In this document: piece by piece, positions 1,499-9,274 of the stretch | Layout: the number at the start of each line of letters is the position of its first letter | How positions within the stretch are numbered: the stretch's first letter is position 1 | From: a virus | Reading direction: 5' to 3' (one strand) | Virus genome (UHGV): UHGV-0369329 | DNA length: 23,752 nt | Made by a program: the position numbers and the translations under genes | Notes under the pieces: model-generated | Database searches by the model: none | Seen by the model: the letters and a program-made list of their open reading frames with translations, nothing else | Told to the model about the DNA's origin: nothing

Positions 1499-3496
1499 TT
1501 ATATTGCAGATATTATAAAACATAATAATTCTTCATATCTTATTCCATATCGCTCACCCCCTTCTATAGATATTCTGCGTTCTCCAGTATCATATTCAAT
1601 TAATTTTTCATCACCGGATTCTTCATCAAAAATTATCTTTTTAGCAATTACTGGTTCGTATTCAGTTTCCCATTTATCATAGCAAAAAAGACCATAGTCG
1701 TTTGCATCAAGCCCTTCTTCAGCAAATGCTTTATATACATCTTGGGCAATAATGCCAAAATGTAATCTAGCATTTTCTCCTTTTTCAATTACTGAATCTA
1801 TAAATCTAAAACAACAAACCAAACCCTTTATTTTATATGCAACACGTCTCTCTGCATCAGTAATCGGTCTTTTATCAGTCTTAACTCGACCATCCGATGT
1901 GTTAATCGTTGAAGTGCCAGCAAATATTGTATTCCACCTTCTGGATGCTGAACCGCAATTTCTAGCGTTATCTGTTGCTGGTTGTACCGACGCATCAAAA
2001 CGAGCATAATTATTCTCATCAGAAACAGGTCCCATCAATCCACTCAAAAAAGGGAGCCCGCTCTGATTAGCAATTATTAATTGGTTGTCACCTGAAGAAA
2101 TTGCCGAACCGGCATTGGTTCCGATAAATATATTACCTGTTCCAGAGCTTAACGATCTACCAGATCTATATCCAAGCATTACATTGTTACTTGCCGAACC
2201 AATAGAATTAAGTGAGTCGGCTCCTACTGCGACATTATTCATCCCTGTAGATGTGCCTGTATAAGGGTTATCTATAGAAGAAATCCCTCTTCCTGATCCG
2301 CTACCAATATATGTATTGTTATCTCCATTTGTAATCTCCCTTCCGGATGCATTGCCTATAAATGTGTTATTATTTAGAATGTTATAAGACAACCTTTTGC
2401 CTGATTGGTCTGTAACAATTCCAGCTCGCATTCCAGCCGCTCGACCTATTGCAACATTACCACTACCAGTATGAAGTTGTTGTAATGCACTTGATCCTAC
2501 TGCAACATTAAAATTTCCTTCTTTATTTTCATTTAGGGCATCGCGCCCAATTCCAATTATGTTACTAGCTGTGGTTGATTTTTTGCACGCATTCACACCA
2601 ATTGCTACAATCTCAGTGCCAGTGCATGGCGATGTATCTGTGAGATCGTCTTGAAGGGTATCACCTGATAATACACCTGTCCCAATTGCTGTAATGTTAT
2701 TGCCCGTGCTAATGTTTCTTCCTGCACTTGGTCCAATCGCAACAACTTGCCCGGATATATCATTTCCATTATATATCTTGCCAGCATCAAAACCAAAAAA
2801 AACATTTCCAATTGTCTGAGCAGGATTTGCAAATGGAATAGGTTCGTCTCCTTTACTTTGTATTATTTTACCAGGGCCATAAAATTTTCCATTAATATAG
2901 TTCTCAATTAAATAAGTACCTTGTGGAACATAAACACCGTCAGGTGAAACTGAAGATGCATAGGAAAATATATGTGTTGCGTCAATATTGCCATTAACAA
3001 TGTCGCTAACATCTTCATGTTTTACAAAATCAAGAATACTAATATTCTCTGCATTTTTATCATGCTGTGTTCGTTTTGTAGAATTAATTAAAGGTTGTTT
3101 TACTGTGATTAATGAATCACCAAGCCCATCATCTGAACTTAAAAGTTCTTGCCTTAACTGATCCGGGTCATACTTCAGCACATTAGGAAAATAAAACTGC
3201 TGCGCACCATATGCATCATAAACAGCCATAGAATGGCCTTGCACAGTTACGAACTTGGCAATCTGTCCGTTATATACCGGATATCCGGCAGCGTTAATGA
3301 TTATTGGTTGCGAAACAGGAATGTGAGAACCGTCTTCGTTCTCTACATAAACCTGAATCTGGTTTTCAGGATTTACCGGGTCAGTGTCAATTTTACCGAT
3401 ATAAATTTTGCCATTGGCTACGGCTTTAAAAGAACGCGCCATAGTGAAGAGTTGCGAAGGCATACTCACTACAACATTGGCTGTAATGTCTGTCAT
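1499..3496 (-). CDS. Tailspike/tail fibre: P22 gp9-like N-terminal head-binding domain, glycine-rich repeat fibre, C-terminal intramolecular chaperone (S74-type) domain
   Basis: N-terminus [43 protein letters not shown]...VLKYDPDQ matches the P22 tailspike head-binding domain. The middle has many G-x-x-A/N-rich repeats. The C-terminus has the TSDGRVK autoproteolysis-type motif followed by a chaperone-like domain. GGAG RBS lies 8 nt upstream of the ATG at 3496. Confidence 0.85.
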
Positions 3497-3628
3497 TTAA
3501 TTTGCTCCAGATACAAGGAATCGCCGCAGCATGGCTACGGTTGGCATTTGTTACATACCGAAACGGTACGATTGTTGATTTGTACAGTGGGTTTTACGAT
3601 GCCATTCCACCCATTTGGTGAGACATTG

Positions 3629-3886
3629 ATGATGTACAGCAAATACGATGAGGCGCAGTTCCACTTGAGGCTTACACACGAGTTGCACGCTAAGATTAAG
3701 CAGCGTGCAAAAATGAATAACAGGTCTATCAATTCCGAAATTGTGGCTACGATGGAAGAATCACTCTCCAAACCATCACCTGTAAGCGGGTATCGTGATG
3801 AAGAAGAGAGGCTGGCCTCATTAATCTCGGAACGAGTAAAAGAAGTTGCGGCTGAAATTCTAAGGAAAGAAAAAACCCGCGATTAA
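3629..3886 (+). CDS. Mnt-like ribbon-helix-helix repressor, 85 aa
   Basis: C-terminal part of track ORF 3233..3886. FHLRLTHELHAKIKQRAKMNNRSINSEIV...SKPSPVSGYRDEEERLASL aligns along its whole length with P22 Mnt as I recall it (FNFRMPMEVREKLKFRAEANGRSMNSELL...SKPSPVTGYRNDAERLADE). The 5' part of the track ORF is antisense to the tailspike gene. Confidence 0.75.
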   Translation: MMYSKYDEAQFHLRLTHELHAKIKQRAKMNNRSINSEIVATMEESLSKPSPVSGYRDEEERLASLISERVKEVAAEILRKEKTRD

Positions 3887-3900
3887 GCGGGTTTAGTTTT
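3873..3900. terminator. Bidirectional intrinsic terminator between convergent Mnt-like gene and antirepressor-type gene
   Basis: AAACCCGC-gattaa-GCGGGTTT, followed by AGTTTT on plus and by TTTCTTT on minus. The TAA stop of the Mnt-like gene (3884-3886) sits in the loop. Confidence 0.65.
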
Positions 3901-3912
3901 CATTATAAAATG

Positions 3913-4641
3913 TTACGCCACATTTGAGCCATGTAGCAGGTGTTGTAGTGCTTTAACGCCTTCAGAATTGTAACGGAACGCCTCTACCTGTTTGCTGGAA
4001 TGCGCCGATTTATCTAGGAAGAACTTCCCGTACTGCTCAGTTTTGAGGTTGTTTGCGTTAGCAATGCGACCAATCTTGTTGGCCGTTACTCCAAGCTGCT
4101 CTGCAACCTCCCCTGCTGAGTAGTAATGCTCTTCTATTGCCGGAAGAGGTATTGCATTAAAACCAACGAGCGGGTTGATTATACTTGCTGCCGCTGTCTG
4201 CTTTGCCTCAGGCGCAAGATTTGGCATCAGATCGAACAGATTGGTAACAGCTTCAACCGTCATTTTCAATGTTCTCGCTTGACGATACTCAACAAGTCCA
4301 CTCGCTGATTTACCGCTTTTAATGTGCGCTTCTTGCATACTTTCAAGTTGGTCTACCAGTGAGCGGCGAACGGCTTTTGACTCGCGAGCGGCAACTCGCA
4401 ATGCTTGCTTGATTGACATCTCAATGATAACCATCGAAGTTTTGTTCGCTTTTTGCACTACACTTTTTGTGTAGTGCTCTCCATCCAATTCATCTTCAAT
4501 TTTCTCGATGAATTTGTTATTACGAACCTCCGGCTCACCGCACTGTCTACGAGCCTGATTTACCATCTCAAGCAGGCGCTGGCTGTCAATGGTTTTATCC
4601 GTGACAACGGATCCGATGTTTGCTACATTCTTAAAAGTCAT
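3913..4641 (-). CDS. Antirepressor-type protein with C-terminal KilAC/ANT-like segment, 242 aa
   Basis: Start moved to the ATG at 4641 (MTFKNVANIG...), which has an AAGGAA RBS 6 nt upstream; the track ORF starts 17 codons earlier without an RBS. C-terminal YSAGEVAEQLGVTANKIGRIANANNLKTEQYGKFF resembles the KilAC/ANT domain of phage antirepressors. Family assignment is from memory. Confidence 0.55.
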   Translation of the reverse strand: MTFKNVANIGSVVTDKTIDSQRLLEMVNQARRQCGEPEVRNNKFIEKIEDELDGEHYTKSVVQKANKTSMVIIEMSIKQALRVAARESKAVRRSLVDQLESMQEAHIKSGKSASGLVEYRQARTLKMTVEAVTNLFDLMPNLAPEAKQTAAASIINPLVGFNAIPLPAIEEHYYSAGEVAEQLGVTANKIGRIANANNLKTEQYGKFFLDKSAHSSKQVEAFRYNSEGVKALQHLLHGSNVA

Positions 4642-4710
4642 TAGGCATTCCTTATGTGGTAGTAAGGGTGTGACATAGGCCGCCAGCAGCACACTGGCGG
4701 TTTTCTTTTT
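4636..4710 (+). ncRNA. Candidate sar-like antisense RNA, about 75 nt, opposite the RBS and start of the 3913..4641 gene
   Basis: Extended -10 TGcTACATT at 4621-4629 (possible -35 GTGACA at 4601-4606, 17-bp spacer). Intrinsic terminator CCGCCAG-cagcaca-CTGGCGG at 4680-4700 followed by TTTTCTTTTT at 4701-4710. The transcript would be complementary to the AAGGAA RBS (4648-4653) and ATG (4639-4641) of the minus-strand gene. No credible plus-strand CDS here. Confidence 0.45.
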
Positions 4711-4729
4711 GCGCCGTCCGGCGCACCAA

Positions 4730-5356
4730 TCAATGAATCCATTCCTCGCCGCGCAGTTTTGCCAGCATTGGCTGAGCGTTCTTTACGACAAAATTGTTGG
4801 TATCAAGATTCTTCATTTCACGAAGAAGTGATTTCTTGGTTTCTTCTGACATATAGCGAGTCTCATATGCGATATCGTAAATCCTTCCTGAAAGCTCAGA
4901 ACAAATTTGCTTCATTCCTGGGTAGATGTGTTTGCACATTTGTTGACTCTTCTCCATCCACAATTGTAAGTAGCAGAGATTAACCAGTTCTTCGTCAGTA
5001 AACTGTTTTGCAATCGGTGAGCATTCTGCCTGCCGATCCAAAATATCCAGCACCCAGCGGCGGAACTCTTTGGCTACCGGAGTGCGAGCAAACATCGCGA
5101 TTAGGTGGGCACCGCGTAGTGAGAAAACTCGCACTTTTTTGCGATAATTTCCTGAGGTACTCACTTCGAGTACCTGAGTCATTCCGGCGCTAAACTCATC
5201 GCTATACTTGTTATAAATCATTGTTACTGCACGACTATTTGCGTATTTAAGTGCAGATGCAATATTAGATGATGTAAACCAAACACCATGCATATCACGG
5301 GTGGGCACCAACTCAACTCCGTGGAAGTTGTAATCTGATTTTGCTACAATATTCAT
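4730..5356 (-). CDS. Antirepressor (Ant-like) with Bro-N/AntA-type N-terminal domain, 208 aa
   Basis: Start moved to the ATG at 5356 (MNIVAKSDYNFHGVELVP...) with an AAGGAA RBS. HGVWFTSSNIASALKYANSRAVTMI...VRVFSLRGAHLIAMFARTPVAKEFRRWVLDIL fits the Bro-N/antirepressor N-terminal pattern. Sits downstream of the Arc-like gene as in P22 arc-ant. Confidence 0.6.
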   Translation of the reverse strand: MNIVAKSDYNFHGVELVPTRDMHGVWFTSSNIASALKYANSRAVTMIYNKYSDEFSAGMTQVLEVSTSGNYRKKVRVFSLRGAHLIAMFARTPVAKEFRRWVLDILDRQAECSPIAKQFTDEELVNLCYLQLWMEKSQQMCKHIYPGMKQICSELSGRIYDIAYETRYMSEETKKSLLREMKNLDTNNFVVKNAQPMLAKLRGEEWIH

Positions 5357-5431
5357 GTTAGTTTCCTTGCATACGGTTACTGACATAGAAGCCCGACTCG
5401 TGTTCGCGCACTGTCGGGCTTCGCTATTTTT
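5357..5431 (+). ncRNA. Candidate sar-like antisense RNA, about 75 nt, opposite the ant RBS, terminating at the 3' end of the arc-like gene
   Basis: Extended -10 TGcTACAAT at 5342-5350. Terminator hairpin GAAGCCCGAC...GTCGGGCTTC (5388-5422) followed by TATTTTT (5425-5431). The transcript would cover the complement of the ant RBS (5364-5369). Same architecture as P22 sar (promoter near the ant start, terminator at the arc end). Confidence 0.5.
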
Positions 5432-5597
5432 ATGTCCTAGCATTCTTCTCTCCAATCAGTCCGTACACTTTTCTCAATTGATAAATAAGTTCCGTGTTGA
5501 ACTGTCGACACTCTTTTTCTCCATTTCTTTCAATCGCCTTCCTTACATCCTCTGGGAAACGAACCTTGCGTTGATACATGTCTTTTGCTTTTTCCAT
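5430..5597 (-). CDS. Arc-like small ribbon-helix-helix protein, 55 aa; below the length cutoff of the ORF track
   Basis: Hand-translated codon by codon: MEKAKDMYQRKVRFPEDVRKAIERNGEKECRQFNTELIYQLRKVYGLIGEKNART. Strong RBS AAGGAG 5 nt before the ATG at 5597. A beta-strand-like QRKVRFPEDV followed by helix is RHH-like, though the NG...E motif is less canonical than in Arc. Position is upstream of ant and divergent from the Mnt-like gene, as for P22 arc. Confidence 0.5.
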   Translation of the reverse strand: MEKAKDMYQRKVRFPEDVRKAIERNGEKECRQFNTELIYQLRKVYGLIGEKNART

Positions 5598-5720
5598 CTC
5601 CACTCCTTAAATAGCCCCACTGTGGGGCAATCGAAATTGTCACACCGTGCGTCATTGAAGTCAACCCCACCGTGGGGCATAATTTACTTATTGTGAATTT
5701 TTCCTGTTTGGACTAATGGT
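5598..5720. promoter_or_regulatory. Divergent promoter/operator region (Pant-like leftward, Pmnt-like rightward) with twin palindromic operators
   Basis: Palindrome 1 GCCCCACtGTGGGGC at 5614-5628; palindrome 2 CCCCACcGTGGGG at 5665-5677. Plus-strand promoter TTGAAG (5655-5660), 17-bp spacer, CATAAT (5678-5683), with palindrome 2 in the spacer. Minus-strand promoter TTGACT (complement of 5659-5664), 17-bp spacer, GACAAT (complement of 5636-5641), with palindrome 1 over the predicted start/leader. The two -35 hexamers overlap. Confidence 0.6.
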
Positions 5721-6095
5721 ATGAGTAGAGAAGACCCTCAACTTCGGATTAGGCTTCCTGTTGAATTAAAAAAAATAATTGAAGCGTCATCAAAACAAAA
5801 TAATCGTTCTATGAATGCTGAGATTGTCACTCTGCTTGAGTTGGCGATTCGTGTTTGTCGTGATTTTGGGCCGGAGGATGGTCCTATCGTTCAGCAGTTT
5901 AAAGAACAACTAGATGCGATAAACAGAAAATATGATAAAATCGAGCATGAAAAACTTATACCTCAACTTTTAGAAATCATAGAAAAACAGAAAAAACAAG
6001 TAGATAAACTTATTAGCATGGTTGAAAGATCAATTCCTCTTTCAGAGGAATATAAGCAGAAATATCTTGGTGATGACAACAAAAAACCCACCTGA
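5721..6095 (+). CDS. Mnt-like RHH repressor with extended coiled-coil-like C-terminus, 124 aa; positional equivalent of P22 mnt
   Basis: N-terminus MSREDPQLRIRLPVELKKIIEASSKQNNRSMNAEIV matches the Mnt N-terminus (MARDDPHFNFRMPMEVREKLKFRAEANGRSMNSELL as I recall). Divergent from the arc-like gene with the operator region between. Confidence 0.7.
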   Translation: MSREDPQLRIRLPVELKKIIEASSKQNNRSMNAEIVTLLELAIRVCRDFGPEDGPIVQQFKEQLDAINRKYDKIEHEKLIPQLLEIIEKQKKQVDKLISMVERSIPLSEEYKQKYLGDDNKKPT

Positions 6096-6105
6096 CGGTG
6101 GGTTT
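6084..6105. terminator. Bidirectional intrinsic terminator between convergent Mnt-like gene and the 322-aa gene
   Basis: AAACCCACC-tgac-GGTGGGTTT; on the minus strand followed by TTTTTTGTT. The TGA stop of the Mnt-like gene (6093-6095) lies in the loop. Confidence 0.6.
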
Positions 6106-6110
6106 CATAA

Positions 6111-7079
6111 TTAGATTTCTGGTTTCATTCTTCCGAAAACCTTTTCTATTCCTTTTTCGTATTCTTCTCTTGTCTCACTCATCGCTGCGACACCAAGAAG
6201 CTTACCGATATGCTGACGCAAAGCCTTGACACCAATTTCAGAAAGGAACAGATGCAACTTATCAGATTGTTTTCCGTTCTCGTCTCGGCTGGCTCTAATT
6301 TGTTCAAGGATTTTACCTTTACTCTTTGCTAGCGGGGTGTATATCTGCATGTTGGTTAGCTGCCCAAAACGAATAGGCCGTCCTTTCTCTGGCCTATTCA
6401 GGCCGTACAGTCGATACCACTCCTCGTATAGCTCATCTGGAAATTCCTTTTCATATTGACGAGCCTCTTCACGAACAAACGCTTTGAACTCGTCAATGAC
6501 AGCCTGAACTTCTGGACGATAACCAGCAAGCGCATACGCAACCCCCTTAATTCCCGCCTTAGCGGAGGCATTAATAAGTCTCTGTGCTGCGGCGGCTGCC
6601 TTTAACCGTGATTGTGGTAGATCGTCATTATCTTTGGCTTCTATTAGTGCCCTACCAATATCAACAATTGCTGTAATGTCATAACCTAACGCTTGATGAA
6701 CGGTTTTAGACTTCGAAGTAAGTTGAAATTTATAGGGATTTTCCATTTTTCGCTGCAATTCTAGATCTCGGTATTTGCTCATATACTGAGCGCCAAGCAG
6801 TTGATCTAAATCCCTGGCATGTTCACCAATCCCTAGCAACTGAGATAATCCAGTTTTCGTAACAACGACAGTTTTCGACTCGTCATCCAGTACATAACAT
6901 TCAGCATCAATGCCAAAATCATCTAAAAAGTTACCACGATGAGTTGCCCTGAGAATCTTACTTTTCCATCTTGCAGCAGCTGCTTTCTTTGCTATTTCAG
7001 AACGCTGCTCTTTAGTCAGCGACTTTGCGCGAGCGATCCCGCCCTTAGCTTTCCCTTCGCCACTTTTCTTTTCAGTCAT
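6111..7079 (-). CDS. Hypothetical 322-aa protein in the sieA/accessory slot; basic N-terminus with HTH-like SEIAKKAAAARW motif
   Basis: Start moved to the ATG at 7079 (MTEKKSGEGKAKGGIARAKSLTKEQRSEIAKKAAAARW...). Hydrophilic with no obvious TM segment. Not recognisable as any P22 structural protein. A possible P63C-type assignment is only a vague recollection. Confidence 0.55.
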   Translation of the reverse strand: MTEKKSGEGKAKGGIARAKSLTKEQRSEIAKKAAAARWKSKILRATHRGNFLDDFGIDAECYVLDDESKTVVVTKTGLSQLLGIGEHARDLDQLLGAQYMSKYRDLELQRKMENPYKFQLTSKSKTVHQALGYDITAIVDIGRALIEAKDNDDLPQSRLKAAAAAQRLINASAKAGIKGVAYALAGYRPEVQAVIDEFKAFVREEARQYEKEFPDELYEEWYRLYGLNRPEKGRPIRFGQLTNMQIYTPLAKSKGKILEQIRASRDENGKQSDKLHLFLSEIGVKALRQHIGKLLGVAAMSETREEYEKGIEKVFGRMKPEI

Positions 7080-7170
7080 AATGCAAGCACCTTTGTTGTG
7101 ATGTATGCTTGCATTATATACACTGTACACACATACAAGCAAGCATAAAGCTAAAACAAAATGCTTGCAT
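7080..7170. repeat. Four copies of a TGCTTGCATTA / ATGCWWGCAT motif in alternating orientation in a divergent intergenic region
   Basis: ATGCAAGCAC at 7081-7090 (reverse), ATGCTTGCAT at 7105-7114, AAGCAAGCAT at 7137-7146 (reverse, partial), ATGCTTGCAT at 7161-7170. Copies at 7105 and 7161 share ATGCTTGCATTA; the copy at 7081 abuts the start codon of the 322-aa gene. Confidence 0.6.
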
Positions 7171-7235
7171 TACAACCGCGCTACTCCAACTACACATTAT
7201 CATCTGGTATCCTGCGCAAAACTAAGGAGGTTGGT

Positions 7236-7424
7236 GTGAAGAAAAAATTTGTAAACGTTGCAAAGTGCGCAATTTTTATATTTTTTATGACCTTTTACGG
7301 ATTTAGTGCCGGAGAAGGTTTCGATCGTGATGCCAATGCATTCAGTTTCTTTTGTCTGTCTATAGTGGTCATAATTGTATGGGTGGAATTAAAGCAAACA
7401 TTGTTTCATGTGCTAGGGAAATAA
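7236..7424 (+). CDS. Small hydrophobic protein, 62 aa, two predicted TM helices; opposite strand to the late operon
   Basis: GTG start at 7236 preceded by a perfect AAGGAGG RBS (7223-7229) at 6-nt spacing. Product VKKKFVNVAKCAIFIFFMTFYGFSAGEGFDRDANAFSFFCLSIVVIIVWVELKQTLFHVLGK has two hydrophobic stretches. The track ORF starts at ATG 7161, which has no RBS. AT-rich, about 36% GC. Confidence 0.6.
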   Translation: MKKKFVNVAKCAIFIFFMTFYGFSAGEGFDRDANAFSFFCLSIVVIIVWVELKQTLFHVLGK

Positions 7425-7441
7425 CCATCCATGGCATTTAG

Positions 7442-9274
7442 TCACTGCTGTGTTGCCTCAGTGGCAAGCAGCGGTCTGATGGCATTCGCAGCGTTATTCA
7501 GCGCTCTTTCATAGGCTGGCGTTCCTGCTTTGGTGTTTGCCAGACGTAAGAGCGCATTCCTGGCCATAGGGCTTTCATAAACCCTCGACATAAGGCCAAT
7601 CCCTGTTTCCCCAGCCAATAGCGCGCCTCCGGTTTTTAGGTTACCAATAACCCTTACCAAAGGCGCGAGTGTCATGCCAGTCTTCGTCACAACATTAGCC
7701 TCAGATGCTCTTTTGGTAGCATCGAGAATAGATAACATCCCCTCTATCTCTTTTCCGTTCTTCCCACCAAATACAGTTTTAAACACCTGACCATTTGCTT
7801 GTTTTTGCAGCTTGCCAAGCTCGGTCATCATTTTCTGAGGGCTGTCACCTACCTTGTCAGCTATTTTGCTGATATATGCCGCCCTTAGCATGTCTTTACC
7901 TTTTTGATCGAGTTTCCCGTACAATCGAGCTATATCTGACCCATATTGTCCATACACAATGGTATTTACAGCCTCGGGAGTTAAATCTCCTTTGTTTAGA
8001 ACGTTTTTAAGGCGCGTTTGAGTTGCATGTGTTGCCATTTTTGCATAATCAGCTTTTCCCGCTCTCCATGCTGAAGCATCTTTTGGGCTAAGTCCTTTCG
8101 CTATAGATTTACTAAGGCTATTGGTTAGCGAGTTATAGACCCTGTCGACCATTGTTTGCGACATTGATGGCAGAACTGTACGATCGCCTTTTACGTCAAT
8201 GCGGAACTGAGTTCTCAGCTTATCAAGTAACTCAAAGGCATCATCTCCATTTGTTATCTCCTGAATGGCATTCTTATAATCATTAAGCGCAGAAATGGTC
8301 TGGGTGTCAGAAACACCTTTAAGTTTCCCAAGTTCGTTTACTGCTCCGTCGATAGCTCTTATGGCGCCACTTGTATCAACTGGCTTTCCAACCATTCTTC
8401 CTGACAGGCTGTTTAGTTTTGACTTGGCTAACGATTTTTCCCTTGCAACGCCTGACTTTAGACTATCAACGACTACAGATGGATCGTAGTCGCCGTATTT
8501 TTCGGTGAAGCGATTAACAAGCTTGGTTCTGGCATCCTGCTGTGCGGCTCTCATTGGTCCAGTACCAGCTATGACTCCTTCTGAGTAACCCTGCAGTTGA
8601 TTGCCAAGTTTTGTTTTTGGAGGAACTACATCCGATGTCATAACTGGTACATCTGCCGCAGCGGCACGCTTGAGCAATTGCTGATCTGCTGGTGATATTT
8701 CGCCACGAACAGCAGTAATTCCACGCCCTATTCCCTTTGCTGCTGCGGAAAGAACCCCCTGAGCGGCAAGGTTAACTCCGGCATTTTTAGCTGCATTTTG
8801 TGCGAAATCGCCTTCCTGATTTGCGGCCTCTGCCAGTGATCCAATAGCCATGCTTCCTGCCGTTCCAACTCCTGGAACTAAATACCCGCCAATTGTTTCT
8901 CCAGCTTGCGCATAAGGGTCTGTTGGTCGATCTACTGGACGATAGACATCGTCCAAAACCTTGGGGCCACCAAGCCCCTGGCTGATTGCATTAATCAGAC
9001 TTGCGCCACCCTGCAATACGTCAAATGGTATGTTTACCAGACCACGACCAGCCTGCTCTGCAATTTGCCCTGCACTTTGACCACCAGTGAGCCAATCGCC
9101 AGCTTGTTGCATCAATGATGGTTCTTCCCGTGTTGGTGCATTATTGTCCTGATTAACTGTTTGTTGCTGAACAGCCTGACCAGCAAAATACTCATCAATG
9201 GCGGTGCCAATATCTTCCGTGCTCGTACCATCAGGGAAGGTAAATGTCTTACCGTTTGCAGTTACTTTCATCAT
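7442..9274 (-). CDS. Ejection (injection) protein, P22 gp16 homologue, 610 aa
   Basis: Size and position (last gene of the virion module, after the gp20 homologue) match P22 gene 16 (609 aa). Assignment is by synteny and length rather than recalled sequence. Confidence 0.8.

Follow-up and report, generated by a model that had tools for sequence, protein, structure and literature searches.

The Mnt and Arc repressors of phage P22 are the founding model of ribbon-helix-helix (RHH) DNA recognition. In the immI region of P22, Mnt represses Pant only and stimulates Pmnt, and Arc represses both promoters. The silence of a resident prophage, and of its heteroimmune neighbors, depends on antirepressor modules. 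The 'ant moron' of P22-like phages has been described as an insertion into the late operon that is mobile, is expressed independently and varies in its gene content, with ten types in sixteen genomes (Villafane et al., 2008, PMC2629481). Here, we analyzed a stretch of 23,752 nucleotides from the virus genome UHGV-0369329 (hereafter, the window), and in it the interval 5598–5720, which is the entire intergenic region between a 55-amino-acid (aa) Arc-like RHH gene on the minus strand and a 124-aa Mnt-like RHH gene on the plus strand. We propose, with a probability of roughly 0.6, that positions 5604–5720 are the control core of an immI-type antirepressor module, with the promoters, three operators and mechanism set out below. 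The locus is an uncharacterized variant, with a different DNA specificity, of the P22 Mnt/Arc/Ant (immI) circuit.

Three related dyads, S1, M and S2, form the basis of this proposal (Table 1). S1 is a perfect 15-bp palindrome and S2 a perfect 13-bp palindrome, the 15-bp version of which is spoiled by A5664; the two are 50 bp apart from center to center. The pair had been described in the initial annotation as near-identical palindromes between the Arc-like and Mnt-like genes, and it was recovered both by direct reading and by a pattern search, in which S1 and S2 were the sole matches to CCCCACNGTGGGG in 23,752 bp with up to two mismatches allowed. Both matches are exact and fall in the same 117-bp intergenic region; the chance expectation was 0.34 matches, and two were reached in 3 of 100 shuffles. 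Both of the operators proposed at that stage are real, but a third dyad midway between them, M, had been missed. M is an imperfect dyad, and it differs from the S sites in having A/G in place of C at the fourth base from the center. All three sites fit the pattern GNCNCAC-N-GTGNGNC and are spaced 25 bp apart. With one mismatch allowed, this pattern is found at S1, M and S2 and at one other place in the 23.7 kb, compared to an expectation of 0.58 matches, and four matches were reached in none of 100 shuffles.

The dyads are interleaved with two predicted promoters. A scan of 5300–6200 returned just two sigma-70-like sites, and these are exactly the pair with overlapping –35 hexamers that had been proposed earlier, TTGAAG-17-CATAAT rightward and TTGACT-17-GACAAT leftward. 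The predicted geometry is back-to-back, with starts ~61 bp apart. S2 fills the spacer of the rightward promoter and abuts the leftward –35, whereas S1 spans about +1 to +15 of the predicted leftward promoter, beginning 7 bp downstream of its –10. The initial annotation had placed one palindrome in the rightward spacer beside the leftward –35 and the other over the predicted leftward start, and S2 was found exactly so, with S1 covering the start from about +1/+2. M is in the leftward spacer, overlapping the extended –10. The two predicted promoters are backed by their position, orientation and conservation, and not by consensus score.

In a megablast and blastn search of 50,697 phage genomes, the control region was found in phage TL-2011b only, at 75% identity, and comparisons were therefore built on IMG/VR and GTDB contigs. 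The IMG/VR sample comprised 151 contigs with a relative of the Mnt-like protein and 106 with a relative of the Arc-like protein, and a conservation footprint was taken as the majority-base frequency over 70 distinct aligned 420-bp homologous regions. This frequency was 0.64 at third codon positions of both genes, 0.60–0.64 in the two 5′ untranslated regions and 0.61 in the S1–M linker; it was 0.89 in S1, 0.97 in S2 and 0.99 in M, the highest of the region, with a value of 0.97 for the whole 48-bp core (5637–5684). S2 varies at its central base only (C51/G13/T3/A3) and the central base of S1 is also free (C47/T11/G11/A1), whereas that of M is C in 70 of 70 regions. The central base of P22 Omnt likewise varies among P22 relatives. 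Strong purifying selection on the arms, with a free center in S1 and S2, bears out the earlier reading of these palindromes as operators. Since both predicted starts are downstream of S2, the constraint on S2 acts on the DNA and not on the transcript of either promoter. In the same 70 variants the leftward –10 hexamer is GACAAT or GACACT with an invariant TG, the leftward –35 is the consensus TTGACA in most relatives, and the rightward –10 CATAAT is nearly invariant (0.986). The near-identity of the twin palindromes holds in the window but is a trait of this variant: S1 is a degenerate copy in most relatives, the twin-perfect arrangement occurs in only a few of the 70, and the constants of the family are M and S2.

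The exact 41-bp M–S2 core, with 35 specified bases, is present in GTDB representative genomes of 14 Enterobacterales species (L244–L257), from the genera Proteus, Xenorhabdus, Morganella, Yersinia (Y. pestis), Kluyvera, Raoultella, Pluralibacter, Rouxiella, Dryocola, Mixta and Pantoea. Both genes flank this core in 13 of the 14, with only the Mnt-like gene detected in Pantoea sp. 1.19 (L256), and the flanking proteins are far more diverged than the core itself. Throughout ~160 loci the two RHH genes and the three sites co-occur, the sole exception being the IMG/VR locus L078. That the palindromes are non-functional sequence, or are bound by a host factor that has nothing to do with the RHH genes on either side, is barely credible given the shuffle statistics for both motifs, their near-invariance in 70 variants and in 14 species of several families, the strict co-occurrence with two RHH genes and the resemblance to Omnt; chance alone as their origin is effectively refuted.

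Loci without one of the two proteins are L078, which has the Mnt-like gene only, and two recent pseudogenes, in TL-2011b and L124, and these are too few loci to show differential decay of sites. At L078 (2846591578_000006, locus 1380–1500), a deletion removed the Arc-like gene, S1 and the 5′ part of ant, so that a 3′ antirepressor fragment is joined straight to M; M, S2 and the leftward –35 carry one substitution each. Phage TL-2011b (L001, locus 2810–2860) is the sole sequenced phage isolate with the module, and its genes are annotated 'Arc-like repressor' and 'hypothetical'. A frameshift follows codon 9 of its Mnt-like gene, for which an internal start is annotated in the record. Two close relatives of TL-2011b (L162 and L163) have an intact Mnt-like gene, the same weakened S2 (GCACACGGTGAGG) and a perfect S1.

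Among solved structures, the Mnt-like protein is closest to Mnt (1MNT; E 0.0016, ungapped over residues 3–43), and BLASTP against P22 Mnt gave 33% identity (E 2e-10) across the DNA-binding domain, with the N-terminal 43 residues ungapped. The 124-aa gene is in this respect the divergent Mnt-family repressor of an immI region, with a C-terminal domain that is not homologous. In Mnt numbering, the protein retains R2, D4, P5, R10, P12 and the NxRSMN(A/S)E helix-B cap. It carries the changes H6Q and N8R at two residues which, from the general biochemistry of Mnt and Arc, we take to be on the DNA-facing side of the Mnt β-strand and to read the DNA. The RefSeq entry, WP_032258060.1, is named 'Arc family DNA-binding protein'. 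Among variants at the IMG/VR loci L004–L163, the N-terminal head MSREDPQLRIRLP is essentially invariant, a few carrying L7F or I9V, and the domains joined to it at the C-terminus are of at least six unrelated kinds (86, 87–91, 91, 117, 119–124 and 143–151 aa), of which the 143–151-aa type is commonest; no Pfam family was found for any of the C-terminal domains at these loci. A homologue search with the head returned only identical N-terminal arms, and thus gave no covariation signal.

The Arc-like protein matches PHROG 228 'Arc-like repressor' (E 1.3e-5), and its NCBI family name is 'Arc family DNA binding domain-containing protein'. Its residues Q9/K11/R13 are in register with Q9/N11/R13 of the 53-aa Arc, and the R-x-x-N-(S/T)-E helix-B cap is kept. 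The gene is preceded by an AAGGAG ribosome-binding site (RBS) at 5608–5603. A search for a solved relative gave no significant match in the Protein Data Bank (PDB). The search for homologues of the Arc-like protein returned 129 clusters, all of at least 68% identity, with no distant Arc-like relative that has a different partner.

P22 Omnt is AGGTCCAC-G-GTGGACCT, and P22 Oarc, a 21-bp operator with TAGA subsites, is ATGATAGAAGCACTCTACTAT. The operators of this locus had been taken to differ from both, implying a different repressor specificity. This stands as far as sequence is concerned, in that a P22-type Omnt was not found in the window at up to three mismatches, no Oarc-type TAGA-N5-TCTA was found in the region, and the reading residues are changed (H6Q/N8R). 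The sites are, however, not unrelated to Omnt, with which they have a 17-bp odd dyad and a CCAC-N-GTGG core in common. S1 and S2 show the features of a Mnt-type operator, namely an odd dyad, the CCAC-N-GTGG core and a free center; M, with CACAC/GTGCG and an invariant center, does not.

Three classes of Mnt protein can be set beside their operators. In the P22 class, residues 6 and 8 are H and N and the half-site is AGGTCCAC; in a further class (class 3) they are Q and N with the half-site AAGACCAC, and in the family of the window they are Q and R with the half-site (A/T)GCCCCAC. All three classes keep R2, D4, P5, R10 and P12, all three operators keep CCAC-N-GTGG, and the outer bases of the operator change with residues 6 and 8. 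The class 3 loci (IMG/VR L330–L334), which lie next to a tailspike gene, have mnt only, with no arc or ant. Their Mnt head is MGRDDPQFNLRLP, and a single perfect dyad, AAGACCAC-A-GTGGTCTT, lies in their own mnt promoter with the same flanks as S2 (TGCGTCATTGA, CTTATTGTG) and without the left half of M. Because the classes share R2/R10 and the operators share CCAC-N-GTGG, the Mnt-like protein is the proposed reader of S1 and S2, and S2 would therefore be an autoregulatory operator. M is the best candidate for the Arc-like protein because of its fourth-base deviation, its fixed center and its tie to the Pant-like promoter. On the most likely division, S1 and S2 would be bound by the Mnt-like repressor, which would thereby repress both ant and its own gene, and M would be bound by the Arc-like protein.

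Judged by their placement, S1 and M are the positional equivalents of P22 Omnt and Oarc. This argues against the reverse assignment, in which the Mnt-like protein on M blocks the antirepressor promoter only and the Arc-like protein on S1 and S2 shuts both promoters. Such an arrangement would copy the logic of P22, in which Mnt represses Pant only and Arc represses both, M is the site best placed for tight repression of the leftward promoter, and L078 retains M and S2 with the Mnt-like gene only. We consider it decidedly unlikely, since it is the S-type dyads, and not M, that share CCAC-N-GTGG and a free center with the operators of the two other Mnt classes, and since the operator at the position of S2 in the arc-less class 3 loci must be read by a Mnt protein.

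With the Mnt-like protein assigned to S1 and S2, the module could work as follows. Two back-to-back sigma-70 promoters would drive the arc-like gene, ant and the second ant leftward, and the Mnt-like repressor gene rightward. The Mnt-like protein, made from the prophage and probably oligomerizing through its helical C-terminal domain, would bind S1 and S2, and its occupancy of these sites would keep the antirepressor operon off and limit its own synthesis. The strong leftward promoter would fire after infection or once the Mnt-like protein was lost. The Arc-like protein, as the first product of the operon, might then bind M, and possibly the S sites, and turn the operon off again, and a sar-like antisense RNA could add translational control of ant.

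Several observations weigh against this reading. The promoter-like matches are not above chance, with 2 found compared to 1.8 ± 1.3 in shuffles. The Mnt-like protein has a C-terminal domain with no relation to the tetramerization helix of Mnt; the Arc-like protein scores 19.2 bits against Pfam Arc, just under the cut-off of 20.4, and its ungapped hhalign alignment to P22 Arc has a weak probability of 56%. AlphaFold2 (AF2) single-sequence models gave a predicted local distance difference test (pLDDT) score of 56 for the Mnt-like protein and one long helix, not a helix-loop-helix, for the Arc-like protein; these models are of too low quality and were not used as evidence of fold. Further points come from the sites themselves. 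An AT-rich variant with the same reading residues (L258) has AGCGCAC-A-GTGAGGC as S2 and GTCACAC-G-GTGAGTC as M, the S1 position of Mixta mediterraneensis (L254) holds a perfect palindrome of the M-type left half-site (CGTCACACGGTGTGACG), and that of Xenorhabdus hominickii (L245) holds a hybrid (TGTCACACCGTGAGGCA). A strict split into two specificities does not explain the Mixta and Xenorhabdus sites, and the role of positions 2 and 4 of the half-site may thus be to tune affinity and not to set two specificities apart. In addition, Q-x-(R/K)-x-R is found on the DNA-reading strand of both proteins, which may therefore share sites.

These last points lead to a model with shared operators, in which both RHH proteins would read GNCNCAC-N-GTGNGNC and each could occupy all three sites, the circuit depending on timing, concentration and a hierarchy of site affinity set by positions 2 and 4 instead of two specificities. 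The DNA-facing residues of the two proteins are nearly alike (Q6-R8-R10 vs Q9-K11-R13), and variation among S1, M, S2 and their homologues is confined to half-site positions 2 and 4, with G1, C3 and C5-A6-C7 fixed; consistent with this model are also the hybrid and swapped sites in Xenorhabdus and Mixta, and the fact that the two proteins and three sites travel together with a single exception. On the other hand, M and S2 each have characteristic bases at positions 2 and 4 that hardly change in the 70 variants, which is unexpected for affinity tuning, the center of M is invariant whereas those of S1 and S2 are free, and the mnt-only class 3 loci carry a CCAC-type dyad only. We regard shared operators as unlikely, but as a serious rival. 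Quite unlikely, too, is the broader picture of two paralogous RHH repressors that share one operator grammar, in which positions 2 and 4 and the central base would decide occupancy, the repressor head would carry swappable sensor or oligomerization tails, and the same 48-bp switch would free the antirepressor on cues that differ from prophage to prophage. If shared grammar and modular tails both proved true, this would be an SOS-independent, plug-in induction system across the Enterobacterales.

A possible role at the RNA level was considered for the dyads as well. The ant moron of P22 is believed to affect read-through into gene 9 (PMC2629481), and the minus-strand RNA of 5700–5598 folds with S2:S1 pairing (–36.3 kcal/mol, z –3.75), so that an S2:S1 hairpin on late-operon read-through RNA might attenuate or process transcription into the tailspike gene. 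The comparative data make this highly improbable. Compensatory double changes occur in 0 of 13 arm pairs in the 70 variants, with the central column at the chance level of 3/70; a minus-strand mismatch at 5617:5675 is present in 19 of 70 variants; the S1–M spacing ranges from 24 to 27 bp among loci; and L078 keeps M and S2 without S1. Moreover, every site is an internal palindrome with a free center, which is the signature of binding by a dimeric protein. Long-range RNA pairing of S1 with S2 was rejected for lack of compensatory change.

A separate RNA element likely lies in the arc–ant spacer, which, from its alignment and fold, would encode a sar-like antisense RNA. The spacer aligns with P22 sar, the antisense RNA of which runs across the RBS of ant, including a conserved GAAGCCC...GGGCTTC hairpin and the GTCAGTAA motif, and its plus strand folds as a pair of stem-loops with a T-run behind them (–34.8 kcal/mol, z –7.1). 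An Rfam search of 3000–7500 (E up to 1) found no sar or other family at threshold, the match to symR at 5354–5425 being sub-threshold (23.9 bits vs 61), and the promoter scan gave no convincing promoter for the sar-like RNA.

Table 1. Positions of the control elements, genes and neighboring features in the window.
Feature	Position	Strand	Basis or remark
Operator S1, GCCCCAC-T-GTGGGGC (GCCCCACTGTGGGGC)	5614–5628, center 5621	.	Perfect 15-bp palindrome
Operator M, GTCACAC-C-GTGCGTC (GTCACACCGTGCGTC)	5639–5653, center 5646	.	Imperfect dyad; 0 mismatches to GNCNCAC-N-GTGNGNC
Operator S2, ACCCCAC-C-GTGGGGC (13-bp part, CCCCACCGTGGGG)	5665–5677 (15-mer 5664–5678), center 5671	.	Perfect 13-bp palindrome
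Predicted rightward promoter, TTGAAG-17-CATAAT	–35 5655–5660, –10 5678–5683; predicted start near 5690	+	Promoter scan
Predicted leftward promoter, TTGACT-17-GACAAT	–35 5664–5659, –10 5641–5636; predicted start near 5629	–	Promoter scan
Predicted leftward extended –10, TGtGACAAT	5636–5644	–	Promoter scan
Overlapping –35 hexamers, TTGAAG (+) and TTGACT (–)	5655–5664	.	Promoter scan; 2-bp overlap, 5659–5660
Arc-like RHH gene, 55 aa (MEKAKDMYQRKVRFP...), first gene of leftward antirepressor operon	5430–5597	–	Open reading frame (ORF); start set by RBS and homologues
Mnt-like RHH repressor gene, 124 aa, N-terminal DNA-binding domain (MSREDPQLRIRLP...) and helical C-terminal domain	5721–6095	+	Pfam Arc, E 3e-7
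Candidate sar-like antisense RNA, arc–ant spacer	5352–5430	+	Alignment with P22 sar region, fold
Antirepressor gene, 208 aa, regulated cargo	4730–5356	–	Pfam Bro-N and P22_AR_C; PHROG 245 'anti-repressor Ant', E 5e-52
Second antirepressor-family gene, tandem with the first	3913–4641	–	PHROG 1726 'anti-repressor', E 7e-101
True Mnt orthologue, second RHH repressor, 84 aa (...SKPSPVSGYR...)	3632–3886	+	PHROG 795, E 2e-32
Tailspike gene	3496–1499	–	ORF, gene order
Terminator-like hairpin closing Mnt-like gene	6083–6106	.	Scored for minus strand only, T-run TTGTTGTCAT
P63C-domain protein, in sieA place between DNA-transfer and Mnt-like genes	6111–7082	–	PHROG 2384, function unknown
Gene-16-like DNA-transfer gene	9274–7442	–	ORF, gene order

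On sequence grounds the window is a P22-like (Lederbergvirus-type) E. coli prophage, and its virion genes are 94–96% identical to those of phiv205-1, CUS-3 and HK620. Along the minus strand the order is the gene-16-like gene, the P63C gene, the 124-aa gene (on the opposite strand), the control region, the 55-aa gene, the antirepressor gene (Bro-N + P22_AR_C), the second antirepressor-family gene, the convergent true Mnt orthologue and the tailspike gene, in agreement with the order 16-[sieA position]-mnt-arc-ant-9 of the annotated P22 record. The module lies between the DNA-transfer gene and the tailspike gene in the late operon, and by this gene order it occupies the P22 immI slot, which is the 'ant moron' position. 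A gap of 73 bp separates the Arc-like gene from the antirepressor gene downstream of it on the same strand, an order like that of ant after the small Arc-family gene in immI. On the plus strand, the terminator-like hairpin that closes the Mnt-like gene has no T-run after its stem, the sequence there being CATAATTAGATTTC.

The true Mnt orthologue is convergent to the antirepressor operon and adjoins the tailspike gene. About 65 bp upstream of it, at 3556–3568, is the dyad TACCG-AAA-CGGTA, the TACC-N5-GGTA core of which is kept in the variants inspected from 75 related loci; this is probably the orthologue's own operator, of yet another specificity class. In E. coli CFSAN018748 (L002, NZ_CP028192.1, 5059416–5060138), an Arc-like/control/Mnt-like module 99% identical to that of the window is flanked by lambda-like tail genes, for minor tail protein L and for a C40 peptidase, and has a different antirepressor cargo. 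Its presence in a lambda-like tail operon indicates that the module is a mobile moron moving between unrelated phage types.

The finding, real and well conserved, overturns nothing known and is unsurprising in principle; its mechanism is a proposal, and it is useful for work on RHH specificity and for prophage annotation. It would add a second and a third natural specificity class of Mnt, with matched changes at residues 6 and 8 and at three outer operator bases, and such matched classes of protein and operator are a ready-made test of the RHH recognition code. Conservation of the 48-bp regulatory core exceeds that of the surrounding proteins, the core ranges from E. coli through Proteus and Yersinia pestis to Pantoea, and the repressor head comes with swapped tails. 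For annotation, genes now labeled only 'Arc family' or 'hypothetical' can be placed in a module that marks antirepressor-controlled prophages, some of which have it in the tail operon.

Compared to P22 immI, the locus shares a divergent repressor of the Mnt family, a small gene, putatively of the Arc family, at the head of the antirepressor operon and an arc–ant spacer that aligns with sar, and the position of the control region between the Arc-like/antirepressor operon and the Mnt-like gene upholds its first description as an Arc/Mnt-type divergent control region, the bistable switch invoked there being hypothetical. The leftward promoter also resembles Pant, having a –35 of TTGAC(T/A), a 17-bp spacer that holds an operator, a –10 and then, after 6 bp, a 17-bp odd dyad with CCAC-N-GTGG. 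Read as a 17-mer, S1 starts 6 bp downstream of the –10, the same distance as Omnt, and S1 and S2 are, like Omnt, odd 17-bp dyads with the CCAC-N-GTGG core; their half-sites are GCCCCAC, whereas that of Omnt is GGTCCAC, so that two outer bases per half-site are changed. M occupies the same place in the leftward, Pant-like spacer as Oarc, but its sequence is related to S1 and S2 and not to Oarc. Recognition of Omnt by Mnt (1MNT) offers the same mixture, with the N-terminal 43 residues ungapped and an odd dyad with an unspecified central base on the one hand, and on the other the reading residues H6Q and N8R and the changed outer operator bases.

The layout, in contrast, departs from that of P22. 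There are three related dyads here instead of one Omnt and one unrelated Oarc, and the promoter of the repressor gene itself contains an additional Mnt-type operator, so that negative autoregulation is predicted, whereas in P22 Mnt stimulates Pmnt. Pant and Pmnt of P22 overlap fully and face each other with starts ~36 bp apart, whereas the two promoters here are predicted to be back-to-back with starts ~61 bp apart. Relative to P22 Mnt, the 124-aa repressor has an unrelated C-terminal oligomerization domain that is interchangeable within the family, and, relative to P22 Ant, the antirepressor is of the Bro-N/P22_AR_C type and is followed by a second antirepressor gene. Set beside the described types of ant moron, this one has an Arc-like and a Mnt-like gene together with two antirepressor genes, a P63C gene and, in addition, a true Mnt orthologue. 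In the literature searched we found neither this type of control region, nor its operator sequence in a phage context, nor the three-site layout. The kind of system is a textbook one, that of immI with its Mnt, Arc, sar and Ant, of which this locus is a variant with other operator sequences and a three-site layout.

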